From Bacteroidaceae bacterium (GTDB taxonomy: Bacteria > Bacillota > Clostridia > Lachnospirales > Lachnospiraceae), in assembly GCA_963589005.1 (NCBI GenBank), contig CAVAJR010000003.1, positions 21,379 to 85,378 on the forward strand: a stretch of DNA of 64,000 bases, given 5' to 3'. Below the pieces are notes generated by a model. It was not told the origin of the DNA and searched no databases. It saw only the letters and a list, made by a program, of their open reading frames with translations. Made by a program: the position numbers and the translations under genes. Shown piece by piece: positions 15,110-64,000 of the stretch. The first letter of the stretch is position 1; every line of letters begins with the position of its first letter.

Positions 15110-15219
15110 GTGTTTTGGTGGATTTGCTGGTTTTAATAATGCGTTATGATAATGCGCAATCATTTAAGCTAAGTAAATCGTAATAAATCAATGACCTACG
15201 TACAGAAGGAGAATTACTC

Positions 15220-42330: not shown

Positions 42331-44025
42331 ATGATAATGATAGATATCAAAGCAAAACCGTTTTATCTTGATGATGAAGGCGTAAAATGGGTAGAAGAAA
42401 CTAAGAAAAATATGTCATTAGAGGAGAAGATCGGACAGCTATTTGTACCTGTCGGATATTCTGCTGAACCTGAATACCTGCAGCATGAGATGCTGGATCA
42501 TCATGTGGGAGGGATTTTATATCGCAGCGGCAACGGTAAAGAAACACAGGACGGTCACCGGTGGCTGCAAGAGAGAAGTAAGATCCCTATGTTTATAGCT
42601 GCTAATCTTGAGACAGGCGGGGACGGTATCGCAACGGATGGAACATCATTTGCCAGGCAGATGGAAGTGGCTGCAACTAAGGATCCGACTCAGGCATACA
42701 GGCTGGGCAAGATAGCGTGTTCCGAGGGTAAGGCTGTAGGATGCAATTGGGCATTGGCACCTGTTGTTGATATAGACAGAAATTGGAGAAATCCCATCAC
42801 CAATGTGCGTACATACGGAGACGATCCGGATTTTATACTTGAATGTGCATTGCAATATAAAAGGGCAGCTGATGAGGAAGGCCTGGCAGTTGCAATTAAG
42901 CATTTCCCGGGAGACGGCTGCGATGAAGTGGATCAGCACATACTTATAAGCGTCAATGACTTATCCTGCGAGGAGTGGAATCGGACATATGGCAAGATAT
43001 ACAAGGGCTTGATCGATGATGGGGCATTGACAGTAATGGCAGGGCATATCGCACAGCCTGCTTATCAGCGGCATTTTAATCCGGAGTTTCCGGACAAATT
43101 GATACCTGCAACATTGAGTCCTGAACTGCTGCAGGGACTGTTAAGAGGAAGATTAGGATTTAACGGACTTATCAGCACGGACTCTACCTGCATGCTGGGA
43201 TTTACTGTAGCTATGAAGCGTGAAACAGCTGTCCCTTATTCTATTGAGGCAGGATGCGATGTATTCTTGTTTAATAAAGACGTTCATGAAGATTACCAGT
43301 TTATGATGGAGGGATATAAGAAGGGAATATTATCAGAGAAGAGACTTGACGAGGCTGTAACCAGGATACTGGCTGCCAAGGCTTCATTGGGACTTCATAA
43401 GAAATCAAAAGATAAGATCGTTCCTGAACAGAGTGCACTTGAAATATTAAGAAATGAAACCCATGAAGCATGGGCCAGAGAGTGTGCTGATAAGTCAGTT
43501 ACGCTTGTGAAAAATAATGAAAATCTGCTGCCTATTTCCCCTGATAAGACTAAGCGTGTGCTGCTGGAAATTCTGGGAAACTACCCGTCCAGTGAACGTA
43601 TTAAAGCAAAATGGCAGACAATGCTGGAAAATGAAGGCTTCGATGTTACGGTATATGAGAAGGAAGATTTCTCCTCCGTGCCTGATTTTTCGGTCAGGAA
43701 TTTCATCAGCCGTTATGATATGGTGCTATATATCGGCAACATGGAGAATATGTCTAATCAGGTTACCAACCGATATCAGTGGTATACATTCTGGGGCAAC
43801 GGTGACAACTGCCCGTGGTTTACAGCAGAGGTACCAGTAATATACGTAAGTCTGGCCAATCCGTATTCACTTGTGGATGTACCGCAGATACAAACATATA
43901 TTAATTGCTATTCTAATAATGATTATGTCATAGATGCCTGCATGGAGAAGCTGATGGGAAGGTCAGAATTCAAGGGAACCAGCCCGACAGATCCGTTCTG
44001 CGGCAAGGAATATCTGAAATATTAA
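42331..44025 (+). CDS. glycoside hydrolase family 3 protein (beta-glucosidase / beta-N-acetylhexosaminidase type)
   Basis: GH3 N-terminal domain motif KHFPGDG and the probable nucleophile region GLISTDS. No signal peptide. Confidence 0.8.
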   Translation: MIMIDIKAKPFYLDDEGVKWVEETKKNMSLEEKIGQLFVPVGYSAEPEYLQHEMLDHHVGGILYRSGNGKETQDGHRWLQERSKIPMFIAANLETGGDGIATDGTSFARQMEVAATKDPTQAYRLGKIACSEGKAVGCNWALAPVVDIDRNWRNPITNVRTYGDDPDFILECALQYKRAADEEGLAVAIKHFPGDGCDEVDQHILISVNDLSCEEWNRTYGKIYKGLIDDGALTVMAGHIAQPAYQRHFNPEFPDKLIPATLSPELLQGLLRGRLGFNGLISTDSTCMLGFTVAMKRETAVPYSIEAGCDVFLFNKDVHEDYQFMMEGYKKGILSEKRLDEAVTRILAAKASLGLHKKSKDKIVPEQSALEILRNETHEAWARECADKSVTLVKNNENLLPISPDKTKRVLLEILGNYPSSERIKAKWQTMLENEGFDVTVYEKEDFSSVPDFSVRNFISRYDMVLYIGNMENMSNQVTNRYQWYTFWGNGDNCPWFTAEVPVIYVSLANPYSLVDVPQIQTYINCYSNNDYVIDACMEKLMGRSEFKGTSPTDPFCGKEYLKY

Positions 44026-47813: not shown

Positions 47814-49466
47814 TTAATTAGATTCGCCGACAGGAATCAGAGCGAATAACTCGTCTTCGTGGTGATAACGCATAGAGCTTGTTACACCGTTGGTATCATC
47901 GAATACCATGATCGCATCTGTGTCGCTGGTCCATGGCTCCCATGTAAGTTCCTCTGTGCTTGGGCTACCTGTTCTTGCAAATGCAGCTAATGCGTCGCTC
48001 ATCTGTTTTGACAGAGCCTCGAACTTAGCAGTCTCGCCGCTTACCCATGCAGGCATCTTGCTTACATTGCTGAACCATAACGGAACATCACCTGCTGTAT
48101 GGATAGGAACGATTCCGCCGAAGAATGGATATGAAGCAGCCTGGATTGAGGTATAAACAGTGCCGCCGTAGCTTTCCATAGCCTCGCACATCGGGATTGC
48201 AGACATGCCGGCAGTACGATTGTTGATATAGAGAACCTCACCAACATTGTGTCCGGGATATGCTTCCTTGAAGGCCTCGATGATCTTAGCTGCCAGGTCA
48301 GCATCGCCATATTTTTCTGTCAATGAAGTCAATACAGATTCTTCTGTCATCATAGACAGGTCGTTGCTTTCAATCAGTTCCTTAGTTGCTGTAGCGAAGA
48401 TCTGATTGCCGATGTTTGTTGTAAATTCGCCTAATACATTGCTTGCTATAAGAGGAATATCCTTAGACATCTCATATGTGCCAGTAGGGATATAATCACC
48501 GTCTACAGTAGGGCCGGCCTTATATCCTGCCTCATTATAAGCAGCATAGAGTGTTTCGTAATCGATAGTTTCGATGTCTTTGATATTTTCTTCAGTAATG
48601 CCGAGAAGATCCAGAACTTCCGCAGCCTTAGCCTGAGTATCTTCTGTTGTCTGAGATACAGCAACGCTGCCGCCTGACCATATAACAGCCTTGTGGAATA
48701 ATCCCTGAGCCGCAGGTGTTGACATGAGAGTAGTAACCTTGCTGCCGCCGCCTGACTGTCCGATGATAGTTACATTGTTAGGATCGCCGCCGAAATATTC
48801 AGCATTGTCGCGTACCCATTCAAGGGCAAATACTAAGTCAGCGATACCGAGGTTGCCTGAATTAGCATATTCCTCACCGTATGCTGAGAGATCGAAATAA
48901 CCTAATACATTGAGACGATGATTTGCACTGATGAATACAACATCTTCTGCCTTGGCAAAATTAGCTCCGTCATAGAGGGTCTTCTCTAATGAACCGCCTG
49001 TTGTATAACCGCCGCCGTGAATCCAGAATATTACAGGCTTAAGTTCGCCGCCCTTGTTGTCAAGATTGGTTGTCCATACATTTAAGTTGAGCATTTTTTC
49101 TTCATTTTCAACCATTTCAGTCGAATAAGCCATGAAGTCAAATGTTTCCATGGTTGTCTTATTCTGTGGGCATACCTCACCCTGCATCAGGCAAGTCTTG
49201 TATCCTTCCCATGCGTCCGGAGCCTCAGGCATATGGAAACGAGTTGCCTTGGCATATGGAATTCCATAGAAGGAATCAACACCGTTCTCGCAATATCCCA
49301 TAATATTGCCATTGGTCGTTGTTGCATAAGTACGAGTAGTTACCAGTTCTTCAGATGCTGCATTTTCAGCTCCTGCTTCACTTGCAGATACTGCAAATGG
49401 CAGAGCGCAGACGGACATTCCGCCTATTAATGCAAGAGTTAAAAGCTTAGTCATAATCTTTTTCAT
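47814..49466 (-). CDS. secreted type-B carboxylesterase/lipase family protein
   Basis: N-terminal signal peptide (MKKIMTKLLTLALIGGMSVCALPFAVSA), oxyanion region WIHGGGY, nucleophile elbow GQSGG. AGGAGG RBS. Confidence 0.85.
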   Translation of the reverse strand: MKKIMTKLLTLALIGGMSVCALPFAVSASEAGAENAASEELVTTRTYATTTNGNIMGYCENGVDSFYGIPYAKATRFHMPEAPDAWEGYKTCLMQGEVCPQNKTTMETFDFMAYSTEMVENEEKMLNLNVWTTNLDNKGGELKPVIFWIHGGGYTTGGSLEKTLYDGANFAKAEDVVFISANHRLNVLGYFDLSAYGEEYANSGNLGIADLVFALEWVRDNAEYFGGDPNNVTIIGQSGGGSKVTTLMSTPAAQGLFHKAVIWSGGSVAVSQTTEDTQAKAAEVLDLLGITEENIKDIETIDYETLYAAYNEAGYKAGPTVDGDYIPTGTYEMSKDIPLIASNVLGEFTTNIGNQIFATATKELIESNDLSMMTEESVLTSLTEKYGDADLAAKIIEAFKEAYPGHNVGEVLYINNRTAGMSAIPMCEAMESYGGTVYTSIQAASYPFFGGIVPIHTAGDVPLWFSNVSKMPAWVSGETAKFEALSKQMSDALAAFARTGSPSTEELTWEPWTSDTDAIMVFDDTNGVTSSMRYHHEDELFALIPVGESN

Positions 49467-49707
49467 AAAATTTCCTCCTGTTTTTATGTTATGTATAATG
49501 ATAATGATAAAATGCTTTTATACAATGCCAGAAGGTATTGATATGCAGGCTTAAGTATGCCAATTAAAATTTGAAAAAATAAGAAAAACCATCATAACAA
49601 TAAAGAATTGCATGTTCCATACAAAATAATATGATTACAGGGGCTGCTGTGTTAAAATTATGAGGCGGAGATGCAATATTATGTATGTAGTTAGAGGAAA
49701 ATACAAA

Positions 49708-52185
49708 ATGCCCGACAGTAAGGTAGTTTTTAATATAAATTTATCACCGATTGAGATCTCTTTATTTCAGCTGTCTTCTCAGCTTCCGGCCTGGGAGTCT
49801 GAGTTACAGCTGATTTTTATAAGTGAAGGTCAGGTGCACTTTCGAGTTGATAACAGCACATACCATTTGAGGGAGAAGGATATTATTATAATCGCACCGA
49901 TGGAGGTATATTCCTTCTCGGAGGGAGACGGTATTGCTGCATGCTTTAAAATCGACATCAACAAAATATCTGATATTGTAAATGAATATAAGCTTCCTGA
50001 TTTTCAGGCAATTTACTTTAAAAAATCGAGAAATGAAACAGATATACAGATGCGTCAGTATATGGCAAATATTTTAATGCGTGTTGTCAAGAAACAAAAT
50101 GCGACTGGTTCGCTTGCAAATATTGCCGACTGCATGAATCTGTTAACGCTGCTGTCAGAACAATTTAAGCATAAAAAAAATAATGCTCCCAAGGCAGGAC
50201 AGGCGCCTGTTCTGAATGCAATATCATTTATCGCACAGAATTTTAATAAGAATATTTCCGTAAGGGATGCAGCGAATGCCTGCCAATATTCGGTATCATA
50301 TTTTTCCAAAATGTTTGCCGATTATATGGGATGCACATTTCTTGAGTATCTTACCTCTGCCAGACTCAGGGAAGCTGAAAAGCTTCTGGACAGTGGTATC
50401 AGCATGTCGGAAATAGCGCAAAGATGCGGATTTGCAGATTACAGAGCTTTATACAGAGCTTATCAGAAAAAATATAATATAACGCTGACGGAAGGTAAAA
50501 AGAGAAAATCTCATGAGAAGTCGTACAGGTTTAACAAGGAAGTAAATATATCCGACGAAGCAGGCCAATATCTGGCAAAATGTCTGCAGCAGCTGCAGGA
50601 CCAGTCTGCTGTTATTCCTACCCAATATGTAAAACTTCCTGAAGTATCTGTCGAAAATATCATAAGACCGTTTCAGCATACCTGGCAGGAAACTGTAGGA
50701 AGCGGTCTGGCAAGCATTATGCTTCAGACCGATAAGCAGGATACAATAAGGCAGCTGCAAAATGATATAGGATACAAAAATGTCATTATTATGGGAATAC
50801 TCAGTGATTCCATGAGAGTGGTTTACCAAAAGGAACATGGAGAGATCAGATATTATTTTGGCAACTGTGATAAGGTTCTGGATTTTGTCCTGGACTTAAA
50901 TATGCGGCCGATCATACAGCTGGGATTTATGCCTGAACTTCTGGCACGGGATAAGAAAAATTGCCCGTTGGGAAGGTTGAATATAGTTAGTCTTCCTGAA
51001 AACATGGATCAATGGGAACAGCTGCTGCGGGCTTTCTTTGAGCATATAATTCTCAGATATGGTCTGCAGACAGTCAGAAATTGGGGATTTTCACCATGGA
51101 GTAAGCCGGAAGTTGTTGAGCTGCCGTTTGGATTTGCAGATGTCAGGGAATATTTTGAATTTTATTACTGTTCGTATAGGGTGGTCAAATCATACGGATC
51201 GGACATACAGTTTGCCAGTCCAGCTTTCTTGATCGCTTCCTGTGGCAAACCTTGGATCAAGGAATTCTTCTATCATTGCAAAAAGAATGATTGTATGCCT
51301 GACAGCCTGAATTTTGATTTTTATCCGGCGATAAAGGCCAATAGAGATATTAATGATAAGGGTTCTGACAGAAGCTATAATGAAGTAGTTAATGAGCTGC
51401 AGTATAATGCGGAGCCTGATTTTATGCGGGATGCGCTGACGAGCATCTCGAAGCTGTGCAAGGATTGCAAGCTGCCATATGAAAAGGCCGGGCTGGAGGA
51501 ATGGAATTTCAGTGTATCACAAAGAGAGCGTGTACATGATACCTGCTATATGGCCAGCTTCATTGCCAAAAATGTATTGGAATGCTGGGATAAGTTTTCA
51601 TATATGAGCTTTTGGACCTGTGCAGATTCAGAGGCGCAGGTGGATATAAATGAGCAGCTGTTTCACGGAGGCATGGGCATGATTGCCGGCGGAAATCTGA
51701 AGAAGCCCTCCTGTTATGCATTTGCTTTTTTAGCTAAACTGGGCGATATGCTTATATCTCAGGGAGACGGATATATTGTTACTGCTAAAAATCAGAACAT
51801 ACAGGTGCTTTTTTATAATTATTGCCATTATTCGGAGCTGTTTGCCAATGCAAGCAGAGATTATCCGTCTCAGATGAATGCATATGAGGCTTTCAGAGAA
51901 CAGTCCCGCAAATACATATCGCTTACGCTGACAGATCTTAGCTTCCGGGAATATATGCTGACTGCTCACAGATTGAATCGTGAACACGGAAGCGTATATG
52001 ATAAGTGGCTAGAAATGGGAGGACAAGAGCCGACAGCGCAGGATGAATTTGAATATCTGCGGGGAATTTCCCAGCCCTATCTGCATAAGCAGAGGGCAGC
52101 AATAAAAAATGGCAGGTATCAGATCGATGTGCAATTAGAACCCTTTGAATTATATTTGATGGAATTTAAACCTATTTTGTCGTGA
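49708..52185 (+). CDS. AraC-family regulator fused to a GH39-like (beta-xylosidase fold) C-terminal domain, paralogue 1
   Basis: Cupin-like N-terminus, AraC HTH (SVSYFSKMFADYMGCTFLEYLTSARLREAEKLL). The C-terminal ~500 aa carry GH39-like blocks RPIIQLGFMPELLA, LEEWN, FHGGMGMI and KKPSCYAF. ATG 49708 sits behind AGAGGA. The ORF is also open from 49660. Confidence 0.75.
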   Translation: MPDSKVVFNINLSPIEISLFQLSSQLPAWESELQLIFISEGQVHFRVDNSTYHLREKDIIIIAPMEVYSFSEGDGIAACFKIDINKISDIVNEYKLPDFQAIYFKKSRNETDIQMRQYMANILMRVVKKQNATGSLANIADCMNLLTLLSEQFKHKKNNAPKAGQAPVLNAISFIAQNFNKNISVRDAANACQYSVSYFSKMFADYMGCTFLEYLTSARLREAEKLLDSGISMSEIAQRCGFADYRALYRAYQKKYNITLTEGKKRKSHEKSYRFNKEVNISDEAGQYLAKCLQQLQDQSAVIPTQYVKLPEVSVENIIRPFQHTWQETVGSGLASIMLQTDKQDTIRQLQNDIGYKNVIIMGILSDSMRVVYQKEHGEIRYYFGNCDKVLDFVLDLNMRPIIQLGFMPELLARDKKNCPLGRLNIVSLPENMDQWEQLLRAFFEHIILRYGLQTVRNWGFSPWSKPEVVELPFGFADVREYFEFYYCSYRVVKSYGSDIQFASPAFLIASCGKPWIKEFFYHCKKNDCMPDSLNFDFYPAIKANRDINDKGSDRSYNEVVNELQYNAEPDFMRDALTSISKLCKDCKLPYEKAGLEEWNFSVSQRERVHDTCYMASFIAKNVLECWDKFSYMSFWTCADSEAQVDINEQLFHGGMGMIAGGNLKKPSCYAFAFLAKLGDMLISQGDGYIVTAKNQNIQVLFYNYCHYSELFANASRDYPSQMNAYEAFREQSRKYISLTLTDLSFREYMLTAHRLNREHGSVYDKWLEMGGQEPTAQDEFEYLRGISQPYLHKQRAAIKNGRYQIDVQLEPFELYLMEFKPILS

Positions 52186-52308: not shown

Positions 52309-54705
52309 GTGTATATGAACGATAATAAAGATTTCGGCTGCAGCCTTGAATTTTTTAATAATTATGGTTTGACGCATGAAGCAAGCAGAACAGAGCTTAT
52401 CTATTTGCTTGAGGGAAATGCCCGGATCACTGTTTCAGACAACAGTTATAGAATGAAAAAGGATGATCTGATCCTTGTAAATTATGGTCAGAATTATTCA
52501 TGGCAGCAGGAGAAGGATACATTTATCTGCGTCATTGGCATTTCCAACAAAACGATAAGAGAAGAGGGCGGAGCGCTTAATGTAAGCTTCAGATGCAATT
52601 CAGCAGCAGCTCAGGATGCAGATTATAAAGAAATAAAAAAAATAATAAGCGACCTGATAGTAGAATATACCGAGGATTATTACAAACTTACATTCAGGAA
52701 AAAGGCCATATTTTTCAGCCTGCTTGATGTTTTATTTAACAGATATATATCAGAGGGAAGCATTATATCCGATGTTTTGTCAACAGATGAGCAATTTATT
52801 AAGATAGTTGAATATATTAATGAAAATTATAACAAGCATTTGCTTCTTAGTAATGTGGCAGGAGAAATTTTCATGTCAGATTCGGCATTTTCCAGATATT
52901 TTAAGAAGCATGCGGGAGTTAATTATTCTGAATATCTAACTAATGTAAGACTGCATAAGGCTGCGATGCAGCTGCTTCAGACAGAGAATACGCTTACGCA
53001 GATCGCTCTTGATAATGGATTTGCTGACCTGGCGATGTTCAGTAAGTCCTTTAAAAAATATTACATGGTATCGCCGTCTGAATATAAGAGAACCCAAACG
53101 GACAAAAAGCAAGGAAGGATGCCTGAGCAGTCTGGCATAAATGAAATACGGGAATATCATAGCCGGCTTGTCAGATTTGTAGACGAAAGAAAAAACAAAA
53201 ATGTCAGCGGCATCTTAAAAAAGCATGTATCTGTAAATACATCTGTTTTTGAAAAATATAACAAAATATGGAATATTGCAATTAATATCGGCGAAGCAAG
53301 CGATCTGCTGATGGCGGATATGCAGAAAAATGTAATAAAACTGAAAAAGGATCTGGGTTTTGGATATGTCCGCATTGTCAATATATTCGGATGGAATATG
53401 CATATCAGACAAGACAGACAGCATAGAAGACTTAGCTTTGATCTGCTTGACAATGTGATTGATTTTATGCTTGATAATGAGATCAGGCCGATTCTTGAAT
53501 TCGGAGATAAGCCGAGGCGTTTAACTCTTGATATTGATAGAATAATCCCGCTTGAAAACGGCAGGCCGGTATTCGAGTCTGCGGTTGAGGCCAGATGGCT
53601 TATTGAGGAATTTATAGAGCATATTGAAAAAAGGTACGGAAGAGATGAAACAGAAAAATGGATATTTGAATTCTGGTATGATAAACGTGACAGGAACCTG
53701 AGCGAGGATGATTATCTTGATATGTTTGACATGGCATATCATGCCGTCAAATCTCATATGCCGGGGGCACAGCTGGGCGGCTGCGGTCTGGAACTGGGAG
53801 CAGATGTGTCAGCATTGCTAGGCAAATGGCATAACAGCCATGAAAGGCCAGATTTTATCTCAGCTGCAGCATTTCCTTATATCTCTCAAATCGATGAACT
53901 GAATTATGCAAATGAGAACAAGATACGTTCTACAGATATTCATTTTATGTATAATGAGCTGCAGAAATTAAAGGCAAGTCTTACAGCTGCAGGAATGAAT
54001 AATGTGCCTGTTATGCTGACGGAGTGGAATCTGTGCATGTCGGATCGTAATTTCTATAATGATTCCTGTGCTAAGGCTGCGCAGATGCTAATGAATATGA
54101 CGGAGTGCATTAATGAAATGCAGCTGGGAGCATATCTGTTTGGTACGGATCTTAATTCGAGATATTATGATACATCTGCTGATTTTTATGGCGGAGCAGG
54201 TCTTTTAACTAAGAATATGCTGACTAAGCCTTCCTTCTATGCAGTACAGTTTATGGGACGTTTGGGAAATGTCCTTTTGCAGCATGGCGATGGGTATATT
54301 GTTACGAGAACTGAAAAGGGCGAATTTATAATACTCATGTTTAATTATAAAAAATTCAATTATAACTATTATACACGCAGAGAAAATGAAATAAGGGCAG
54401 AGGATCTGCATAGGTTATTTTCTGATGACGACCCGATAAAAATTGAATTGGAATTAAGCGGTATATCTAATGGACAATATCAGGTAAAGACAGAAAATCT
54501 GGGAATAAACAGCGGAGGATTTATATCAGCATGGACGGATCTGGGGGAGTCGTCGGTGCTGGATAAGTCGGAAATAGAATATTTAAAACGCATCAGTGTA
54601 CCTAAGATCAGGATAAGAAGACAAAATGCTCAGGGAGGTCGGCTTGTTGTTTCGGAAATATTGGAAGCGCATGATATCAGATTTATAAAAATAAAGAAGT
54701 TATAA
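52309..54705 (+). CDS. AraC-family regulator fused to a GH39-like C-terminal domain, paralogue 2
   Basis: Same architecture as paralogue 1 (HTH: SDSAFSRYFKKHAGVNYSEYLTNVRLHKAAMQLL; GH39-like: RPILEFGDKPRRL, LTEWN, FYGGAGLL, TKPSFYAV). The start is GTG 52309 or ATG 52315. Confidence 0.75.
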   Translation: MYMNDNKDFGCSLEFFNNYGLTHEASRTELIYLLEGNARITVSDNSYRMKKDDLILVNYGQNYSWQQEKDTFICVIGISNKTIREEGGALNVSFRCNSAAAQDADYKEIKKIISDLIVEYTEDYYKLTFRKKAIFFSLLDVLFNRYISEGSIISDVLSTDEQFIKIVEYINENYNKHLLLSNVAGEIFMSDSAFSRYFKKHAGVNYSEYLTNVRLHKAAMQLLQTENTLTQIALDNGFADLAMFSKSFKKYYMVSPSEYKRTQTDKKQGRMPEQSGINEIREYHSRLVRFVDERKNKNVSGILKKHVSVNTSVFEKYNKIWNIAINIGEASDLLMADMQKNVIKLKKDLGFGYVRIVNIFGWNMHIRQDRQHRRLSFDLLDNVIDFMLDNEIRPILEFGDKPRRLTLDIDRIIPLENGRPVFESAVEARWLIEEFIEHIEKRYGRDETEKWIFEFWYDKRDRNLSEDDYLDMFDMAYHAVKSHMPGAQLGGCGLELGADVSALLGKWHNSHERPDFISAAAFPYISQIDELNYANENKIRSTDIHFMYNELQKLKASLTAAGMNNVPVMLTEWNLCMSDRNFYNDSCAKAAQMLMNMTECINEMQLGAYLFGTDLNSRYYDTSADFYGGAGLLTKNMLTKPSFYAVQFMGRLGNVLLQHGDGYIVTRTEKGEFIILMFNYKKFNYNYYTRRENEIRAEDLHRLFSDDDPIKIELELSGISNGQYQVKTENLGINSGGFISAWTDLGESSVLDKSEIEYLKRISVPKIRIRRQNAQGGRLVVSEILEAHDIRFIKIKKL

Positions 54706-54722: not shown

Positions 54723-54768
54723 CAGGCATCAATATATGACAAGCTCGTATATTGATGCCTGATTTTTA
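54723..54768 (+). terminator. rho-independent terminator after AraC paralogue 2
   Basis: Perfect 14-bp stem CAGGCATCAATATA / TATATTGATGCCTG followed by ATTTTTAT. Confidence 0.85.
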
Positions 54769-54774
54769 TGTAAA

Positions 54775-54831
54775 GAAATGACAAGAAATGACAAGAACCT
54801 AAAAGAAGCAAAACAACATATTAGCTATAAT
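54775..54831 (+). promoter_or_regulatory. tandem 10-bp direct repeat plus TATAAT box (candidate activator-dependent promoter)
   Basis: GAAATGACAA occurs twice (54775-54784 and 54785-54794). TATAAT lies at 54826-54831 with no recognisable -35 (AAGAAG). Confidence 0.4.
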
Positions 54832-54919
54832 ACGGTGGACGAAGTATGCATTTGTATGCGTCTTAGGATGGTAGGATGCAGGTTGCAGCAAAATTCATAT
54901 GCACGATAGGAGGTTGATT

Positions 54920-55354
54920 ATGGGATTTGCTATGCGCATGCCTCTAAATGGGGAGATCATAAAACGAGATTCAGTAAAGAGCATGTTTATTAATGGGAAA
55001 AACAACGGCATAAGCTTTGATGTACAGCTGGCTTACTACAGAGGACATTATTTGTCAGATATTGACCAGCTGGAACTGTGGATTGACGGGCAGCAGATTG
55101 CTAAGGAAGCAATAACATTTGAACTCAATGGCAAGGAAATGCCTGTGTATAAATTATCATGGGCTGTTACAGAATTCTGGAGCCAGGTAGTGCCTGCAAC
55201 CATCAGAGCTATTATTCCGGGAGGACTGGACAAGGGCGAACATACAATTGAGCTGAAGCTTATGCTGAGAGTGCCATATATGAATATAGGCCCTGGACAT
55301 ACATATATGCCGTTAGATGCCGGTGATAAGATTCAGATATCAGTCACAGAGTAA
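54920..55354 (+). CDS. small (144 aa) protein, candidate beta subunit of a C-glycoside deglycosidase-like enzyme (DUF6379-like)
   Basis: ATG 54920 is 6 nt after AGGAGG (54908-54913). The gene ends 12 nt before a xylose-isomerase-like TIM-barrel gene. The size and the pattern ISFDVQLAYYRGHYLSDIDQLELWIDG...GEHTIELKLMLRVPYM fit my recollection of this family. The homology is not verified. Confidence 0.5.
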   Translation: MGFAMRMPLNGEIIKRDSVKSMFINGKNNGISFDVQLAYYRGHYLSDIDQLELWIDGQQIAKEAITFELNGKEMPVYKLSWAVTEFWSQVVPATIRAIIPGGLDKGEHTIELKLMLRVPYMNIGPGHTYMPLDAGDKIQISVTE

Positions 55355-55366
55355 GGAGGAGTGAAG

Positions 55367-56347
55367 ATGGGTATTAAGCTTGGAGCAACATTATTTTGCT
55401 ACGGAACCGAATATGCAAGATATCAATATGATTTTGAAGAATGTGTGAAGCAGGCTGCATTGGCAGGGGCTGAAGGATATGAGATAGTCGGAACACAGAT
55501 GCTTCCTTCCTATCCTAATGTAAGTGATGAGTTCCTGGGACTTGTAGAGAAGCTGCGAATAAAATATGGCATAGGTCCTGTGTGTTATGGTGCGAACAAT
55601 GACAGAGGCATGAGAATTGACAGAGACCTTACTGACGATGAGATGCTGGCAGATGCGATCATTGATCTTAAGGCTGCCAATAAATTAGGCTGCAAGGTAA
55701 TGCGTGTTCAATATATGATGTCACCGGCAGCATTTGCAAGGCTTGCACCATATGCAGAGCTTTTTGATGTAAAGTGCGGCATCGAAATTCATAATCCGGA
55801 GACTCCTCTGTCAGAAAATATGAAGAGATACATTGAAGTAATTAAAAATACAGGCTCTGAATATCTGGGATTTGTACCAGATTTTGGATATTTGGCAGTA
55901 GAACCGAACAAACCTAAGTGGGACAGAGCACTGGCGTTGGGAGTCAAGGAAGAACATCTTCTCATGGCTAAACAGATGAAATTGGACGGAGTACCTCAGG
56001 ACGAAGCAGCTGAAAAACTGATGCAGGCTGGGGCACATCCAGCGATTATGGAAACTCTCGCAGGAATGTATGGATTTGTTCAATTCAGATCGAGAAAGGA
56101 ACTGCCAAGGCTGTTAAATGAATTGAAGGAAATACTGCCATACTCATTTGAAATGCACGGTAAATTCCACTATCTGGACGAAAACTGTGTTGAGGCAAGT
56201 ATCCCTTATGAAGAGATATTTGCATTTCTGAAGGAAAATAAATACGACGGATATGTTATATCTGAATACGAAGACGAGATGTATTGCGGCGGAACGGAAT
56301 TTACCAAGAGACATCTGGCTATGGGAAGGAGACTGTTGGGACTGTAA
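55367..56347 (+). CDS. sugar phosphate isomerase/epimerase (xylose-isomerase-like TIM barrel), candidate catalytic subunit of a C-glycoside deglycosidase-like enzyme
   Basis: E-D-H-E metal-ligand pattern of this fold: GIEIHNPE, VPDFGY, EMHGKFH, ISEYED. ATG 55367 is 7 nt after AGGAGGAG. Confidence 0.7.
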   Translation: MGIKLGATLFCYGTEYARYQYDFEECVKQAALAGAEGYEIVGTQMLPSYPNVSDEFLGLVEKLRIKYGIGPVCYGANNDRGMRIDRDLTDDEMLADAIIDLKAANKLGCKVMRVQYMMSPAAFARLAPYAELFDVKCGIEIHNPETPLSENMKRYIEVIKNTGSEYLGFVPDFGYLAVEPNKPKWDRALALGVKEEHLLMAKQMKLDGVPQDEAAEKLMQAGAHPAIMETLAGMYGFVQFRSRKELPRLLNELKEILPYSFEMHGKFHYLDENCVEASIPYEEIFAFLKENKYDGYVISEYEDEMYCGGTEFTKRHLAMGRRLLGL

Positions 56348-57269: not shown

Positions 57270-57424
57270 CAGAGTTTAGTTTAAAATAAATCTTGGGGTA
57301 ATTATTATATATTAACTGTTAATGTGCTGACAGCTGTTAGTTATTATATAGGGCTGTCCGAAGGCCTGCAGCAGAAGATTAAACTGCAGCAGAAAATGGT
57401 TTGGGCAGCCTGATGGGGGAAGTT

Positions 57425-59053
57425 ATGAATAATAAATGGCAGGCATTGATCGCAGATGACGAGCAGAAGGTATGCCAGCTGATCCAATATCTGGTTCCGT
57501 GGGACGAACTTGGTATAAATGTTGTTGCAGCTGTGTCCAATGGTCTTGAGGCCATGGATGTCTTAAAAGAAAAACATATTGATATTCTGATCACGGATGC
57601 CCGTATGCCGGAATGCGACGGCATAGAGCTTATTAAGTGGTGCGCTCAGAATAATCTCAATGTTAAATCTATAGTAATAAGCGGATATAGGAATTTTGAA
57701 TATGCACATGGCGCCCTTAAATACGGAGTCAATGCATATTTGCTTAAGCCTATCAATCAAAATGAGTTAATAAGCAGCCTGAGAAATATAATAAAGGAAC
57801 TGCGAAGTGAAATACAGGTAAATGAGGAAAGCAAGAACACACAGCTTAGATTAACACAGAGTAAGGAAGCTCTCAGAAACCATTTTATAAGCAGTTATAT
57901 ATTTGACGGATTTCAATATTCAAAACAAAAGACAGGATTTGTTGACGAGATAAATCATGAATATCAGATGGAATTTAAGGAAGATAGCTACCAGGCTGTT
58001 ATGATAAAGATCGATCATGATCCTGATTTTGATATTCAGCTGGATAAGCTGCTTAATATTATTAAAAAAAATGCGGACGAATTCATGACCGGATTTGCCC
58101 ATGAATATGTAAGTGCTATTGCACATTCAGCCGTTGTTATGCTGTTAAATTATGACAGAGGACAAGGCGGTGAATTTCGAAATAAAACAGAAGAATTATT
58201 ACTTGCACTTGAAAAATGTATAGATGCATATGACAAGGTAACCTTGATGATAGGCGTCAGTGAGACAGAAGATACTATACAGAATATAGACAAGTGTATC
58301 GCTTTGGCAGGAGAAGCTGTTAAGTTCAGAATATCCAATCCTGTGAAAAAAATCATCTATTATGAAGAATGTGAATATGAGAATAAGGATATACACAGCA
58401 TAATCACGCCTGAGAGGACGGAAATGCTGGGCAGCTGCATTAGAAACGGCAACAAGGCTGAAGCAAGGAAAATTGTTTTTGATGTCAAATCACAGCTTCA
58501 CAGGATCAGAAATCTGAGCCCTGTAATAATATATGCAGCCATTTCTGAACTGGGCAAGATCTCACTCGGGATTCTTGAAAATACCGTAGAGGACCCTGAT
58601 ACATGTACGAGAACAAAAATAAAATTTTACGAGAGAATAGACAGTGTTTCTACAGAAGATGCATTATGGAATTCTCTTGATAAATTGTTTTTGGAATGTA
58701 TGAGACTTATGGACCAGGAGATGGTTAACCAGCAGACCAAACCTGTTAGGATAATAAAGGCGTATATTGAAGAAAATTTCAGCAAGGCAATAACTCTGGA
58801 AAGTGCGGCTGAGAAGGTTAATTTAACACCTAATTATATAAGTACGATATTTAAAAAAGAAACGGGAGTATCTTTTCTGGAATATCTGACATCTGTAAGA
58901 TTAGATAAGGCAACGGAAATGCTCAGAAAAAGTGATATGAGTATGAGTGAGATAGCCGAGGCTGTAGGCTATAATGATGTTAAACATTTTAGTAAACTCT
59001 GCAAGAAAACCCTGGGAATGAAGCCGTCTGAATATCGCAAATTATATTCGTAA
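57425..59053 (+). CDS. response regulator with C-terminal AraC-type HTH (YesN-like)
   Basis: REC domain (ALIADDE, phospho-acceptor Asp in ILITDARMP at 57596-57598, KP motif LLKPI). C-terminal AraC HTH (PNYISTIFKKETGVSFLEYLTSVRLDKATEMLR). Confidence 0.85.
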   Translation: MNNKWQALIADDEQKVCQLIQYLVPWDELGINVVAAVSNGLEAMDVLKEKHIDILITDARMPECDGIELIKWCAQNNLNVKSIVISGYRNFEYAHGALKYGVNAYLLKPINQNELISSLRNIIKELRSEIQVNEESKNTQLRLTQSKEALRNHFISSYIFDGFQYSKQKTGFVDEINHEYQMEFKEDSYQAVMIKIDHDPDFDIQLDKLLNIIKKNADEFMTGFAHEYVSAIAHSAVVMLLNYDRGQGGEFRNKTEELLLALEKCIDAYDKVTLMIGVSETEDTIQNIDKCIALAGEAVKFRISNPVKKIIYYEECEYENKDIHSIITPERTEMLGSCIRNGNKAEARKIVFDVKSQLHRIRNLSPVIIYAAISELGKISLGILENTVEDPDTCTRTKIKFYERIDSVSTEDALWNSLDKLFLECMRLMDQEMVNQQTKPVRIIKAYIEENFSKAITLESAAEKVNLTPNYISTIFKKETGVSFLEYLTSVRLDKATEMLRKSDMSMSEIAEAVGYNDVKHFSKLCKKTLGMKPSEYRKLYS

Positions 59054-59058: not shown

Positions 59059-59865
59059 ATGTGGATCTATATATCAGCTGTATTGGCTGCATCAAACATA
59101 ATAACTGTTATTTTGATAATAGTGACTATAAGAAGGAAAAAGCTTCAGATGGAGCTTTTTATAAAAGAACGGGAAATTCTGGAAAATCAGATGGAAGTTG
59201 ATAAGAAGACAGCAGAAATCTCCAGTCTTCAGAGCCAGATAAACCCCCATTTTCTTTATAACACTCTGGAGGTTATAAGAAGTGAAGCCATCATGAATTC
59301 CGATCCCGAGGCGGCGGAAATGGCTGAAGCTCTTGCTAATTATTTCCGCTATAACATAAGCCGCAAGCAGGATATGGTAACAGTAGGCGAGGAATTAGAT
59401 AATGTGGCCAATTATATAAATATTCAAAAGCGAAGGTTCGGCGAGAGAATTTCATACATAGAAAGGTTTGATTCTGATGAAAATGAGATCAGGATGGCAA
59501 TTATTCCTAAGCTGACATTGCAGCCATTGGTGGAAAATGCCATATTCCACGGAATTGAGAAGAAGGCCGGCAATGGCACCGTAACAGTGTATATTGTTAC
59601 GACTACTCAAAGGCTTATCATCAGGGTAATAGATGATGGACCGGGCATGGATGCTAAAACTCTGGAAGAAGTAGAAAATAAGATAAAAGGAATCTCAGCC
59701 TCGGATACTAAGGACAATAATTCCAAGCACGGAGGAGTTGCTCTTGCTAATATCAATCAGCGAATTAAGATGATATTCGGTCAGGAATACGGATTGAGCA
59801 TTTCAGCATCATACGGTGTCGGAACGGAAGCTGAAATTGTCATGCCATATAAGGTAAAGGAATAG
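59059..59865 (+). CDS. minimal LytS/YesM-type sensor histidine kinase (one TM segment, no extracytoplasmic or HAMP domain)
   Basis: 268 aa. TM segment WIYISAVLAASNIITVILIIVTI, coiled coil, His_kinase H-box QINPHFLYNTL (His codon at 59248-59250), HATPase_c (LVENAIFHG, DDGPGM, GVALANI). Confidence 0.8.
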   Translation: MWIYISAVLAASNIITVILIIVTIRRKKLQMELFIKEREILENQMEVDKKTAEISSLQSQINPHFLYNTLEVIRSEAIMNSDPEAAEMAEALANYFRYNISRKQDMVTVGEELDNVANYINIQKRRFGERISYIERFDSDENEIRMAIIPKLTLQPLVENAIFHGIEKKAGNGTVTVYIVTTTQRLIIRVIDDGPGMDAKTLEEVENKIKGISASDTKDNNSKHGGVALANINQRIKMIFGQEYGLSISASYGVGTEAEIVMPYKVKE

Positions 59866-59868
59866 TAA

Positions 59869-61317
59869 ATGAAGAATGAAGTTCTCCGAATGGAACATAT
59901 ATCGGTAAAGAAAAGAAGCGGTCTTGCACTGTCTGATTTCAGATTAAATGTTTTTGAAGGAGATCTTGTTGCTGTATTTGGTTTCGAGGACAGCGGCGTA
60001 CAGGAATTAGGCGAGGTGATACTGGGCAATACATATAACGAGGGACGCATATTATATTGCGAACAGGAATTAAAATCTGACAAGGATAAATTATCAGAGC
60101 AAAGGGGTGTGTTTGTTATAGAAGACAATACATCAATAATGCCTGATTTTACAGTTGCCGAGAATCTGTTCTTTCGTGCTGCAGGAAGTTATTTCAGAAT
60201 AGTAGCCAATCCGAAGCAGCAGGAAACATTTGCCAGGGGAATACTTGCCAGGCTTGATGTTGCAATTGATGTAAGAAAGAAAGGAAAAGAACTTCGTTTT
60301 TACGAACGCTTTGTTTTAAGTCTGGCGAGAGCTTATGTTCAAAATGCCAGGCTTATTGTATTTATTGATCCTCCTAATCTGGCTGATATGGGGCACGGAA
60401 GAGAGATTATTGCTATTATTGATAAACTCAAGCAATCCGGAATATCGATTCTGTGGCTAGACAACCATATCCAGGGCATAGAAGAGATTGTAGATGGAAT
60501 ATTCGTTGTTCGAGACGGGAAAAATGCAAGGACATATTATCATGAAGATTTCTCATTAGAGAAAATAATCGGAATCGCTGAAAATAAGAGAAACGTCAAT
60601 ATAGCCGAAAGAGATACTAATAAGTCAAGCGGCGCCACATTGCTTGAAATGGTAAATGTATGCAGCAGACGTCTTGATAATCTTAATCTGTCGATAGAAG
60701 AGGGGCATATAAACGGGATAAATTCTAATGACCCGGAGCGGCTTAGTGAACTAAGAAATATTTTATGCGGTGAACTTCAGGAATATAAAGGACAGATGCT
60801 TCTCCGGGATAAGAGATATCATCCCGACAATTATAACGAGGCTGCAAAACAGGGCGTGCAATATGTGGATATAATGAAATTCGAGAAGCATGTTATATCG
60901 CAAATGAATGTTATCGATAATATGCTCTTACAGAGTTATTGGCTCAATAATAGTATATTCGGCTTTACACATAATCATCAGATCAAATACATGGAGACAG
61001 AATTAAGAAGGCGTCACAGACATTGGCATCTGGATAGCTGGGAGAATCTTGAGGTATGGCAGCAGAAAATACTTCTTATGGAAAGATTCTTGTTTCAGCC
61101 GGTGAAGATCTGCATTATTACGGAGCCGTTTATTAAATTTAACAGTGAAATGATAGAGAGTGCCTTGAAGGTATTTGACGAATTAATATCCAGAGGCAAA
61201 ACGATAGTGCTGCTTTCTATGAGCATTCATGATCTTATGACTGCCTGTGATGAAATAACCATAATAAACAAAGGTAAAAATGTGCTGACGATCGCCCGCG
61301 AGGATTGGCAAAAATAA
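59869..61317 (+). CDS. degenerate tandem-NBD ABC ATPase paralogue (CUT2 MglA/RbsA-like, predicted non-catalytic)
   Basis: Length and block order match a two-NBD sugar ABC ATPase. NBD1 Walker A is GFEDSGVQE (59980-60006) and Walker B is VFIDPP. NBD2 Walker A is GINSNDPERLSE, the signature is reduced to WQQK, and Walker B is ICIITEP. Confidence 0.7.
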   Translation: MKNEVLRMEHISVKKRSGLALSDFRLNVFEGDLVAVFGFEDSGVQELGEVILGNTYNEGRILYCEQELKSDKDKLSEQRGVFVIEDNTSIMPDFTVAENLFFRAAGSYFRIVANPKQQETFARGILARLDVAIDVRKKGKELRFYERFVLSLARAYVQNARLIVFIDPPNLADMGHGREIIAIIDKLKQSGISILWLDNHIQGIEEIVDGIFVVRDGKNARTYYHEDFSLEKIIGIAENKRNVNIAERDTNKSSGATLLEMVNVCSRRLDNLNLSIEEGHINGINSNDPERLSELRNILCGELQEYKGQMLLRDKRYHPDNYNEAAKQGVQYVDIMKFEKHVISQMNVIDNMLLQSYWLNNSIFGFTHNHQIKYMETELRRRHRHWHLDSWENLEVWQQKILLMERFLFQPVKICIITEPFIKFNSEMIESALKVFDELISRGKTIVLLSMSIHDLMTACDEITIINKGKNVLTIAREDWQK

Positions 61318-61327: not shown

Positions 61328-61354
61328 GGGGATATTAAAAATACCCCCCTTTTT
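61328..61354 (+). terminator. terminator after the RR-HK-pseudoATPase operon
   Basis: GGGGATAT / ATACCCC stem (one bulged A) followed by CCTTTTT. Confidence 0.6.
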
Positions 61355-61513
61355 GTAGAAAAACCACCTTTTGGCATTATTGAACGTTTTTTATAATCTG
61401 ACCAAGTAATGAGCCAAGCGGGATATAAATATCGCAGCGGCAGGAAGCATGCATGGATGCGGCTTCTTAATTACAATAAAATAAGAGGGTGCTTTGATCA
61501 AAGGAGGAGCAGT

Positions 61514-62491
61514 ATGAAAAAGGTTTTAAGTGTATTACTTGCAGCAGTTTTGACATTATCAGTATTTGCTACTACGGCATTTGCAGATGAGGCTAAGACA
61601 GTTGAACCAAACGGAATGAAGGTTACAGCATTGTTCTTCAGTCTTGAAGGCGAATTCTTCCAGATGTTTGATGGTTTGTTAAGGGAAGAACTTGAGAGCA
61701 AGGGATATGAGTATGAGAGCCAGTCATCCAATCTGGATCCTATTACGATGTGTGAGCAGATTGAAAATGCAGCAATTTCAGGAACAGATCTTATCTGGAC
61801 ATGGGCAGTATCAGGCGAGGCGATCGCAGACACCTGCCACCGCGTTCGTGAAGATTACGGCGTAAAGATCTACAGCTTTGTTCAGTATCCGGGTGAAGGC
61901 AATGTTGATGTATTCCGCGGAACGGATGAAACAGAATGTGGACATAAGATTGCTGAAATGGCTATGGATTGGGCTGATGCTAAAGAATACAAAGAAGACG
62001 GTTCTATCAAGGCTCTTGTACTTGGAAACGAAGATTCAACACAGCAGAAGGAACGTTTTGAAGCAGTTCAGGAAAAGTTAGCAGAAGATCCGAGATTTGA
62101 GATCCTTGAAGCAGTTTCACTTGAGGCTTCTACTGTTGCAGCTCAGAATACATCTGAGAATATGTTCAACAAATACGACCATATTGATTGTGTGATCACA
62201 CCGGCCGGAGAGATGGCACTGGGAGTTGTTGCTTATACACATTCAGAGTCCAGCCCTGTTGATTTCAAGGATGTTGCCGTATTCGGAACAGAGCTTAATG
62301 AAGAAATAGCTAATTACATTAAGGACGGTTCTATTATCGGAACTATCATGAATGGCGGAGTACCTGCTGAAAATGTAAAGGCACAGGCAGAACAGATTGA
62401 TAAACTTCTTAAGGGTGAAGAAGTAGAAGCTTTCTCAGGCGTTGACCTTGCTAAGGTTACTATCGATAATTTGGAACAGTTTGGTTATTAA
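61514..62491 (+). CDS. periplasmic-binding-protein type I sugar-binding protein (RbsB/MglB-like)
   Basis: ATG 61514 is 6 nt after AGGAGGAG. Signal peptide MKKVLSVLLAAVLTLSVFATTAFA-DE has no lipobox Cys. Peripla_BP-like alternation (KVTALFFSL..., IKALVLGNEDS...). Confidence 0.8.
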   Translation: MKKVLSVLLAAVLTLSVFATTAFADEAKTVEPNGMKVTALFFSLEGEFFQMFDGLLREELESKGYEYESQSSNLDPITMCEQIENAAISGTDLIWTWAVSGEAIADTCHRVREDYGVKIYSFVQYPGEGNVDVFRGTDETECGHKIAEMAMDWADAKEYKEDGSIKALVLGNEDSTQQKERFEAVQEKLAEDPRFEILEAVSLEASTVAAQNTSENMFNKYDHIDCVITPAGEMALGVVAYTHSESSPVDFKDVAVFGTELNEEIANYIKDGSIIGTIMNGGVPAENVKAQAEQIDKLLKGEEVEAFSGVDLAKVTIDNLEQFGY

Positions 62492-62582: not shown

Positions 62583-64000
62583 ATGAGCAGCGAATCAGCA
62601 TTGCGACTTAATCATATAACCAAAAAATATCCCGGTGTTATCGCGCTGAATGATGTTTCATTTGAATTACTAAAAGGCGAGGTTCATGCCATAGTCGGAG
62701 AAAATGGCGCAGGCAAGTCAACACTTATTAAGTGCTTGTGCGGTGCGATCACTCCTGAGGAGGGCACAATAGAAATAGATGGACAGACATATAAAGGCAT
62801 GAACCCTAAACTGTCCAGAGAACATGGCGTTGAAGTTGTTTATCAGGAGTTAAACCTTATAGACGGACTTACAGTTGCTGAAAATGTATGCTTTGGAGCC
62901 AGGTATGGCAAACTGGTTAATTTTAAGCTTATTAACCAGAAAACCCAGGAGGTCTTTAAGAGGCTTAATGTGCATATTGATCCTAAAAAATTGGTTATGC
63001 ATCTGTCAACGGCGCAGCAGCAGCTGGTGGAGATAGCTAAGTCTGTCTCTAAGGATGTTAAGGTTCTTATCCTTGATGAGCCAACAGCACCGCTTACTAC
63101 GGACGATGTGGACATACTTTTTGATATTATCCGAATGCTTAAGGCCAAAGGCGTATCCATAGTTTATATTTCTCATAGGTTAGATGAAATATTTGAAATA
63201 GCTGATCGTGTAACGGTTATGAGAGATGGTCAGTATGTTACGACGCTTAATACTAAGGATACCAACAGAGATGAATTGATTAAATACATGGTAGGCCGTG
63301 AGCTGAAGGACATATATCCTGCCAATCCTTATGTTACAGATGAGCCGATGCTTGAACTTATCAATGTATGCGGTAACGGTGATAAGGATATCAGCCTTCA
63401 CATAAACAAGGGGGAAATTGTAGGTCTGGCAGGACTTGTGGGTGCAGGAAGAACAGAGCTTGCCAGAGTTCTCTTCGGTGCCGACAAGAAGGAATCAGGA
63501 ACCATCAAGCTGGATAAAAAGGAAGTACATATTTCTAATCCGGGTCAGGCTATCAAGTTGGGAATAGGTTTGATCCCTGAGGACAGAAAAAGACAGGGAA
63601 CTATCCTTAGTTATGGCATAGACTGGAATATAGCTCTTACACATTTGCCTAGAATATCCAAGGGTATAGTCGTACAGAATAAGATCGTACAGGAGGAGGC
63701 TGATGAATTCATTCAAAAGCTTAAGATAAAGACTCCGAGCAGAAAACAGTTAGTCAGAAACTTAAGCGGCGGCAATCAGCAAAAGGTTGTTTTGGCCCGT
63801 ACTCTGGTTAATGATTCGAAGCTGGTAATATTCGACGAACCTACGAGGGGTATTGATGTTGGCGCCAGAGCTGAGATCTATAATCTTATATCAGACCTGG
63901 CAGCCCAAGGGAAGGCAGTTTTAATGATCAGTTCTGATATGGAAGAGCTGATAGGCATGTCTGACAGAATATATGCACTGGCAGACGGCAGGATTACCGG
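62583..64000 (+). CDS. sugar ABC transporter ATP-binding protein, tandem NBD (CUT2, MglA/RbsA-like); 3' end outside the window
   Basis: Absent from the ORF track because there is no stop codon in the window. ATG 62583. Canonical Walker A GENGAGKST (62697-62723), Walker B LILDEPT, second NBD GLVGAGRTE, LSGGNQQK, FDEPTRGID. Confidence 0.9.
   Translation, partial: MSSESALRLNHITKKYPGVIALNDVSFELLKGEVHAIVGENGAGKSTLIKCLCGAITPEEGTIEIDGQTYKGMNPKLSREHGVEVVYQELNLIDGLTVAENVCFGARYGKLVNFKLINQKTQEVFKRLNVHIDPKKLVMHLSTAQQQLVEIAKSVSKDVKVLILDEPTAPLTTDDVDILFDIIRMLKAKGVSIVYISHRLDEIFEIADRVTVMRDGQYVTTLNTKDTNRDELIKYMVGRELKDIYPANPYVTDEPMLELINVCGNGDKDISLHINKGEIVGLAGLVGAGRTELARVLFGADKKESGTIKLDKKEVHISNPGQAIKLGIGLIPEDRKRQGTILSYGIDWNIALTHLPRISKGIVVQNKIVQEEADEFIQKLKIKTPSRKQLVRNLSGGNQQKVVLARTLVNDSKLVIFDEPTRGIDVGARAEIYNLISDLAAQGKAVLMISSDMEELIGMSDRIYALADGRIT

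Follow-up and report, generated by a model that had tools for sequence, protein, structure and literature searches.

The 64,000-nucleotide stretch of DNA analysed here (the window; positions 21,379 to 85,378 of contig CAVAJR010000003.1, assembly GCA_963589005.1, deposited as Bacteroidaceae bacterium and placed by GTDB in the Lachnospiraceae) encodes a 482-residue protein that resembles the ATPases of CUT2 sugar importers and has lost the ATP-binding cassette (ABC) motifs in both of its nucleotide-binding domains (NBDs). The gene of this degenerate tandem-NBD protein, which we call dNBD, lies on the plus strand at 59869..61317, directly behind the genes of a response regulator (RR) and of a histidine kinase (HK) devoid of a sensor domain, and the same three genes are found together in other genomes. 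The reading that we tentatively favour, with a confidence just short of even, is that dNBD is a non-catalytic paralogue of the CUT2 ATPases that was recruited as the signal-input subunit of the sensor-less kinase, to which it would report the state of the importer. With a little more reserve, we consider that RR, sensor-less HK and dead tandem NBD may represent an unrecognised class of module. In such a module dNBD would plug either into the NBD site of the importer or into the kinase dimer, which would stand in as its "transmembrane domain" partner, and would relay the motion of the substrate-binding protein (SBP) and permease without ATP.

dNBD shares with the CUT2 ATPases RbsA, XylG, MglA and AraG a length of roughly 480-500 residues, two NBDs in one chain and the same order of blocks, but those proteins keep their catalytic residues and are encoded in transporter operons, whereas dNBD has lost all of these residues and is encoded in a kinase operon. 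Its open reading frame (ORF) is intact and begins with ATG. We aligned it with the genuine CUT2 tandem ATPase encoded downstream (62583..64000, plus strand), which has all motifs intact and runs off the end of the window. In NBD1, Walker A reads GFEDSGVQE in dNBD and GENGAGKST in the neighbour, with the lysine replaced by valine, the Q-loop VIEDN against VVYQE, the signature LRFYERF against LSTAQQQ, Walker B LIVFIDPP against VLILDEPT and the H-loop LDNH against ISHR. In NBD2, Walker A is SNDPERLSE instead of GLVGAGRTE, Walker B ICIITEPF instead of LVIFDEPT, and the H-loop position SMSI instead of SSDM; the canonical segment PEDRKxxG is lost as well, and the signature LEVWQQK, compared with LSGGNQQK, retains in its QQK the sole remnant of the NBD2 motifs. 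Canonical CUT2 ATPases are themselves asymmetric, having LSxxQQQ as the first signature and GAGRTE in the second Walker A. The original prediction had described dNBD as a tandem paralogue of the CUT2 ATPases with motifs degraded in both halves, and every motif that it quoted was reproduced by the alignment. Its further claim, that the protein probably cannot hydrolyse ATP, is supported by the loss of motifs in both halves, and we regard hydrolysis as very unlikely on the basis of the sequence; for the dNBD of the window neither binding nor hydrolysis of ATP is predicted.

The quantitative comparison with MglA, RbsA and XylG that had been suggested along with that prediction gave a consistent picture. 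The nearest NCBIfam models are XylG, AraG, RbsA, GguA and MglA, yet dNBD obtains only 123-140 bits against cut-offs of 689-828, that is, 5-6 times below them, while the neighbouring ATPase reaches 449-539 bits in the same models even though it is cut by the window end. With Pfam ABC_tran (cut-off 25 bits) the scores are 42.5 bits for dNBD and 198 bits for its neighbour. By sequence, dNBD falls outside both the functional ABC ATPases and the CUT2 equivalogs; by fold it is an ABC protein. An ordinary, divergent transporter ATPase that hydrolyses ATP through non-canonical residues would be in line with the database names of the relatives and with the intact predicted fold, but it would have to do without catalytic residues in either half, it fits poorly with scores so far under the family cut-offs, and it would be redundant with the complete ATPase of the same locus, which has every motif. 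We consider this explanation very improbable and reject it on the motif, score, selection and synteny data.

An AlphaFold2 model of dNBD, built from a 53-sequence alignment, comprises two complete NBDs (pLDDT 88.6, pTM 0.87). The best PDB matches found with Foldseek are the single-chain tandem NBDs 8s7v_K, the A2 component of the methyl-coenzyme M reductase activation complex, and 8wdb_D (TMq 0.74, E ~1e-24). The model is closer to DppD of M. tuberculosis in its ATP-bound state (8wdb_D, TMq 0.74) than in the apo state (0.62). A sequence search of the PDB for a solved CUT2 tandem ATPase, on which interface residues might have been mapped, returned none.

The gene is maintained by selection. Between dNBD and its 83%-identical orthologue in locus L092, the ratio of non-synonymous to synonymous substitution rates (dN/dS) is 0.042, compared with 0.035 for the kinase and 0.070 for the response regulator; the synonymous sites are saturated, so that these ratios are approximate. 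In the same comparison dN is 0.094 for dNBD and 0.021 for the true ATPase, a difference of about 4.5-fold. The full-length ORF is intact in relatives from 91% down to about 20% identity, and dNBD is under purifying selection. A decaying duplicate without function could account for the loss of all catalytic motifs and for the raised dN, but hardly for full-length ORFs, for so low a dN/dS, for a gene order that does not vary across about 20 loci spanning several orders and phyla, or for a confidently predicted fold. With these observations a pseudogene is ruled out for practical purposes, being the least probable of all the explanations that we weighed.

dNBD belongs to a family of its own. The 10 full-length relatives retrieved by a word-based search reach down to 25% identity and are degenerate without exception. 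We then examined the best 150 matches of a family profile search over 1.84 billion representatives, each representative standing for a cluster at 50% identity. Among these matches 97, corresponding to at least 97 clusters, were without both DEP[TS] and LSGG, and the first fully canonical ATPase appeared at rank 43. The Walker A lysine of NBD1 is also gone in 67 of the 97 degenerate representatives and kept in the other 30. A family-specific N-terminus, M-K-x-E-[IV]-L-R-x-E, is present in 87 of the best 150 matches; the motif (M-K-x-E-x-L-R-x-E) corresponds to strand beta-1, beside the former adenine pocket. A few matches, P0199 and P0234 and also P0216, P0226 and P0250, score highly and have this N-terminus together with a full or almost full set of ABC motifs; P0199, P0234 and similar proteins may be catalytically competent relatives from near the point of recruitment.

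Residue conservation was compared between 111 family sequences and 54 canonical ones. In NBD1 of the family, the Walker A lysine is found in 59% and the Walker B aspartate in 62% of the sequences, and the catalytic glutamate, the Q-loop glutamine and the H-loop histidine are lost; in NBD2 all motifs are lost. The proteins of loci L003, L009 and L011, for instance, retain the Walker B aspartate with the catalytic glutamate changed to asparagine or aspartate. These patterns indicate that the whole family is non-catalytic, that some members may still bind nucleotide in NBD1 and that the clade of the window, from which the Walker A lysine has disappeared, has lost nucleotide binding too. As about 30 of the 97 representatives keep this lysine, nucleotide binding may have been part of the ancestral mechanism. 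The structural glycines and the segment behind the Q-loop, LxxxLTVAENLF, are kept at canonical levels, with N99 conserved in 97% of the family and its NBD2 counterpart N351 in 100%. We take this segment to align with TIKENIIF508 of CFTR. In CFTR, TIKENIIF508 contacts the coupling helix of the transmembrane domain.

The association of dNBD with the kinase is the strongest part of the evidence. In the window the spacers measure 5 nt between RR and HK (RR stop 59053, HK start 59059) and 3 nt between HK and dNBD (HK stop 59865, dNBD start 59869), where a TAA-ATG follows directly on the kinase stop. About 20 distinct loci show the order AraC-type RR, short PF06580 kinase and dNBD, with ORFs that abut or overlap in all but one. 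They come from Lachnospiraceae, Oscillospiraceae, Clostridiaceae-like bacteria, a contig labelled Atribacteria and a metagenome-assembled genome of the Sphaerochaetaceae. Loci were collected from two sides. From the dNBD side we used exact-protein look-ups and a scan of one genome per species, followed by tblastn and ORF calling, and found the RR-HK-dNBD order in L001/L002, L003, L004, L005/L006, L007, L008, L009, L010, L011, L033, L044 and L092/L093. In L064 (Sphaerochaetaceae) HK and dNBD stand at the contig end, with the RR off the contig, and in L036 the same genes are rearranged, a chemotaxis protein gene (HAMP and MCPsignal, 712 aa) lying between dNBD and RR-HK (8001-14657). From the kinase side, seven short kinases were picked by kinase similarity alone; all seven have an AraC-type regulator gene upstream and, immediately downstream, the gene of a 475-493-aa protein with a weak ABC_tran match or none. 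Their sources are Konateibacter massiliensis, Clostridium sp. SYSU_GA19001, Proteiniclasticum ruminis, Oscillibacter valericigenes, the Atribacteria-labelled contig, Geosporobacter ferrireducens and Ca. Galacturonibacter soehngenii. The original prediction had assigned dNBD to an operon with the response regulator and kinase rather than with the transporter, and had called for a search for co-occurring short kinases and degenerate NBDs; the spacers and the two-sided collection of loci bear out the first and answer the second. The evidence that the three genes form an obligate cassette is strong.

Three features of individual loci may be recorded here. The module occurs at least twice in one genome of Konateibacter massiliensis: in L085 the kinase has 281 aa and C-glycoside deglycosidase genes lie beside it, and in L009 the kinase has 347 aa. 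As the SBP gene of L009 overlaps the end of the dNBD ORF, it is probably transcribed together with the signalling genes. In L007 (5306-6960) the response regulator gene is broken into two ORFs, possibly by a frameshift or an assembly error.

The kinase (59059..59865, plus strand, 268 aa) consists of His_kinase (PF06580) and HATPase_c domains behind a single transmembrane (TM) helix at residues 5-23. Pfam and TM scans of these 268 residues showed no extracellular domain, HAMP or PAS, and the helix runs straight into the catalytic part, with the H-box about 40 residues after it, in agreement with the earlier description of a kinase without an input domain. Inspection of the translation by eye shows the H-box QINPHF together with the N and G boxes, and the kinase core looks functional. 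Its partner, a YesN/CuaR-type response regulator of 550 aa (57401..59053, plus strand), combines a Response_reg domain with a C-terminal HTH_18/HTH_AraC region. The 120 closest kinase homologues all measure 180-372 aa, and 102 of the 120 have one or two predicted TM helices, with loops of at most 17 aa. Because these homologues leave no room for an extracellular domain, the kinase cannot sense the outside by itself. The TM anchor is retained in most of the kinases, its sequence being poorly conserved, and this retention fits a membrane-associated signalling complex. Two subtypes can be distinguished, one of 266-273 aa with a single TM helix, which is that of the window clade and whose dNBDs are without the Walker A lysine, and one of about 330-355 aa, in which a minimal loop separates two TM helices; in the loci examined the kinase subtypes go with the dNBD clades.

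A CUT2 importer accompanies the cassette. Downstream of dNBD in the window, a sugar-binding lipoprotein of the Peripla_BP_4 family, the CUT2 SBP, is encoded at 61514..62491 on the plus strand. The mechanical ORF starts at 61409, and ATG 61514 is the likely start, being preceded by the ribosome-binding site AAAGGAGGAG and opening a lipoprotein-like signal peptide, MKKVLSVLLAAV. In the syntenic locus L092 a 492-aa ATPase is followed by a single permease gene, a 321-aa BPD_transp_2 protein (positions 14163-15128). One SBP was seen in this stretch; a further CUT2 transporter, which begins where the locus ends, is left aside in that count. Since the locus shows one SBP and two NBD proteins, the duplicated component is the NBD and not the SBP. 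A complete importer (Peripla_BP_4 SBP, intact tandem ATPase and BPD_transp_2 permease) lies within about 10 kb in nearly all loci, and in most of them next to the module; in Oscillibacter it is about 9 kb away, on the other strand. The terminator that had been proposed between dNBD and the transporter operon is upheld in part. An imperfect G+C hairpin with a T-run stands at 61328-61358 on the plus strand, just past the dNBD stop, and is kept in L092. It is a probable terminator of the RR-HK-dNBD operon, but the terminator scan listed it on the minus strand only. A TATAAT near 61393, downstream of the hairpin, is kept in L092 as well.

These elements can be arranged into a scheme for the favoured reading, in which dNBD serves as the input subunit of the kinase. 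The lipoprotein SBP would bind its substrate, probably a flavonoid- or C-glycoside-related sugar, and the loaded SBP would dock on the BPD_transp_2 permease. On the cytoplasmic face of the permease would sit the dead tandem NBD, replacing the true ATPase or alternating with it, and its conformation or occupancy would shift with the SBP- and substrate-dependent state of the permease. The membrane-anchored kinase, co-translated with dNBD, would read this change and phosphorylate the AraC-type regulator, which would in turn switch on the transporter and catabolic operons. The genes of dNBD and kinase are associated by direct observation; we infer for the mechanism that dNBD does not hydrolyse ATP, that it forms a complex with HK, that it docks on the permease and that the signal travels in this direction. 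Action close to the membrane is supported by the kept TM anchor, by the linkage to a CUT2 importer and by the retention of the post-Q-loop segments in both halves.

Several observations weigh against this scheme. The contacts of HK with dNBD and of dNBD with the permease are putative. The TVAEN segment is structurally important in every NBD, and its retention is no proof of docking on a permease. The dNBDs diverge strongly, with a median identity of 23% compared with 48% for the cognate ATPases, which is unexpected for proteins that share one conserved permease surface. They are also hardly closer to the ATPase of their own locus (21.5% identity) than to those of other loci (21.1%; permutation p = 0.07), and because dNBD is no closer to its cognate ATPase, recent and repeated duplication from the neighbouring gene is ruled out. 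In a mirror-tree comparison of six proteins across 12 loci, every pair of distance matrices is correlated (r 0.69-0.97), whereas partial correlations are low, unstable and in favour of neither HK nor permease as the partner; dNBD follows the permease no better than the ATPase (partial r 0.04 given the ATPase), the RR and HK being tracked slightly better. No complete importer was found within 6 kb in L089, which has an IS110 element downstream, or in L091, which has the SBP only. Finally, the degeneracy is uneven, and those of the family that keep the first Walker A lysine (some 30 of 97) may respond to nucleotide and not to a transporter.

The last points lead to an alternative in which dNBD is a cytoplasmic sensor that binds the kinase directly and responds, independently of the permease, to nucleotide in the members with an intact first Walker A, or to an imported sugar or a metabolite held in the degenerate pockets. 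The tight translational coupling of HK and dNBD would suit it, as would the 30 of 97 representatives with G..G.GK[ST] in NBD1 and the several with a Walker B aspartate, a pattern of proteins that bind ATP without hydrolysing it. The family N-terminal motif near the former adenine pocket and the slight, weakly supported preference of dNBD for RR and HK over the permease once the ATPase is controlled for point the same way, and so do the two loci without a full importer nearby. A nucleotide as the common signal is unlikely, since the window clade has lost the Walker A lysine and the NBD2 pockets are gone in all members; we know of no NBD that binds sugars, which counts against the sensing of an imported sugar. 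Such a sensor would moreover leave unexplained both the membrane anchor of the kinase and the nearly universal proximity of a CUT2 importer, and we judge it unlikely, while taking it seriously.

In a further alternative dNBD regulates the transporter, as an output or feedback element: it would take the place of the true ATPase on the permease and so slow uptake, and its position in the operon would mean only co-regulation. The CUT2 tandem architecture and the post-Q-loop segments have been kept, and a catalytically dead subunit is a natural dominant-negative; that cross-talk can run in this direction is illustrated by BceS, which throttles the ATPase activity of BceAB (PMC10314905). The sensor-less kinases would nevertheless remain without an explained input, a simple decoy would not need translational coupling to the kinase in nearly every locus, and the absence of dNBD from CUT2 loci with putatively full-length kinases (L039, L049, L074) would be left unaccounted for. 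We regard this explanation as distinctly improbable.

Transporter-coupled signalling has so far been known mainly from the Bce modules, Pst/PhoU, C4-dicarboxylate co-sensors and SBP-dependent three-component systems. Paralogues of transporter parts act as non-transporting sensors in UhpC (with UhpB/UhpA) and in yeast Snf3/Rgt2, and these are paralogues of membrane permeases, not of NBDs. In MalK-MalT and PstB-PhoU-PhoR, catalytically active ATPases of the working transporter convey its status to transcription control. By analogy, the dNBD module would work most like the Bce and the SBP three-component systems, and like transporter-paralogue sensors such as UhpC. The flux-sensing Bce modules (PMC10314905, PMC11009047) likewise have clustered genes and a kinase without an extracellular sensor. 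The input of the Bce kinase depends on an ABC transporter; for the kinase described here, a dependence on the ABC-like protein is proposed from synteny. The Bce kinase forms a complex with its transporter (PMC10314905, PMC11009047), as HK and dNBD are here presumed to do. In BceAB-BceS, ATPγS induces closure of BceA, and coupled to this the stalk of BceS kinks by 30 degrees (PMC10314905). The differences are considerable. Bce signalling uses the working transporter itself, composed of the BceB permease (FtsX-like, with 10 TM helices and a large extracellular domain) and the catalytic BceA, and no dead NBD is set aside for the purpose. BceS combines two TM helices with a HAMP domain and signals to an OmpR-type regulator, whereas the kinases described here are of the PF06580 (LytS/YesM) type, contain one or two TM helices but no HAMP, and are paired with an AraC-type RR. 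Bce transporters are exporter-like and confer peptide resistance, in contrast to a CUT2 sugar importer with SBP and BPD_transp_2 permease.

The SBP three-component systems, CuaDSR and XylFII-LytS-YesN, share with the dNBD module a YesN/AraC regulator (538 aa in CuaR, 550 aa here), a similar-looking kinase core, an operon of signalling genes that precedes, and is distinct from, the operon of a sugar ABC importer, and the use of a transporter-part paralogue as third component, for sensing (PMC10384115). CuaD-CuaS-CuaR of Ruminiclostridium cellulolyticum consists of a second SBP, a 627-aa kinase with HAMP and with a 267-aa extracellular domain to which this SBP binds, and the regulator (PMC10384115). 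In those systems it is the extracellular SBP that was duplicated (CuaD, XylFII), whereas here it is a cytoplasmic NBD, with a 268-aa kinase, one SBP and dNBD as the third gene of the operon. GraXSR-VraFG of Staphylococcus aureus also requires a soluble accessory protein, which is cytosolic, besides a sensor-less kinase and an ABC transporter (PMC4314665, PMC7951975). GraX is not known to be a homologue of ABC NBDs, the transporter is Bce-like and the regulator is OmpR-type.

A full-text literature search on degenerate NBDs with kinases, on two-component systems at C-glycoside clusters, on three-component systems, on accessory proteins of intramembrane-sensing kinases, on YesM/YesN and on pseudoenzymes returned no description of the RR-HK-dNBD arrangement, and neither Pfam nor NCBIfam holds a model specific for the dNBD family; with no paper or curated family found, the arrangement appears to be uncharacterised, as had been supposed. 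The relatives bear public names such as "ATP-binding cassette domain-containing protein", "putative ABC transporter ATP-binding protein", "ribose transport system ATP-binding protein" and "CUT2 family". Naming them as ABC or ribose transport ATP-binding proteins inflates counts of transporters, and our reading would correct a systematic mis-annotation. If dNBD is indeed the input subunit, a route of input would be explained for many LytS/YesM-type kinases of gut and anaerobic Firmicutes that are devoid of a sensor, a type to which all 120 closest homologues of HK belong, and a pseudo-ATPase derived from an ABC NBD would be a new class of component in transporter-coupled signalling. It would be the first pseudo-NBD signal transducer, the counterpart at the NBD level of the SBP-dependent three-component systems. 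As its members form a series from those that keep Walker A and B to those with nothing left, the family would be a useful model of how an enzyme domain becomes a pure conformational relay.

The window is chromosomal and contains the housekeeping genes ilvD, leuA, leuC, recG, alaS and dxs, followed by a glycoside-utilisation locus. There the order is GH3, GH78, carboxylesterase, two AraC-GH39 fusions, deglycosidase subunits, an FMN reductase-like protein, the RR-HK-dNBD module and the importer. Upstream of the module, the GH3 gene occupies 42331-44025, that of the GH78 alpha-L-rhamnosidase 44037-46844 and, on the minus strand, that of the carboxylesterase 47814-49466. The beta subunit of a C-glycoside deglycosidase (PF19906) is encoded at 54899-55354 and its xylose-isomerase-like TIM-barrel partner at 55361-56347, both on the plus strand. 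They are followed, also on the plus strand, by an FMN_red-family gene ending at 57269, which probably starts near 56349 and not at 56253, judging from its 306-aa counterpart in L092. With its GH3, GH78, carboxylesterase and deglycosidase genes, the region from 42331 onward looks like a flavonoid-glycoside utilisation locus. The C-glycoside deglycosidase (CGDB/TIM-barrel pair) flanks the module also in L085, L086 and L092, and FMN_red genes lie upstream of the RR in L001, L004 and L092. Because deglycosidase genes adjoin the module in the window and in these three loci, the signal is likely to be a flavonoid C-glycoside or a related sugar. As the module of the window is proposed to control a locus with C-glycoside deglycosidase, rhamnosidase and GH3, it would be relevant to the sensing of dietary flavonoid glycosides by gut bacteria.

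Between the carboxylesterase and the deglycosidase genes, Pfam identifies a pair of paralogues of about 800-840 aa (49660-52185 and 52309-54705, plus strand), in which an AraC-type ligand-binding/cupin and HTH part is fused to a full-length GH39-like domain. The GH39-like part may provide a transcription factor with a sensor domain of glycosidase origin. Such a fusion also adjoins the RR-HK-dNBD module in L004, L086, L091 and L092, and an 804-aa ORF beside the module in L009 is probably the same fusion. Upstream of the deglycosidase operon, three copies of the repeat ATGACAAG occur at 54735-54795 on the plus strand. When an operator common to the deglycosidase and SBP promoters was sought, these repeats were found only upstream of the deglycosidase genes and not before the SBP operon. 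The tandem pair AATGACAAGAAATGACAA is unique within the window (0 expected), and the ATGACAAG repeats are kept in L092 despite diverged flanks, so that they are a candidate operator for one of the three nearby AraC-type regulators.

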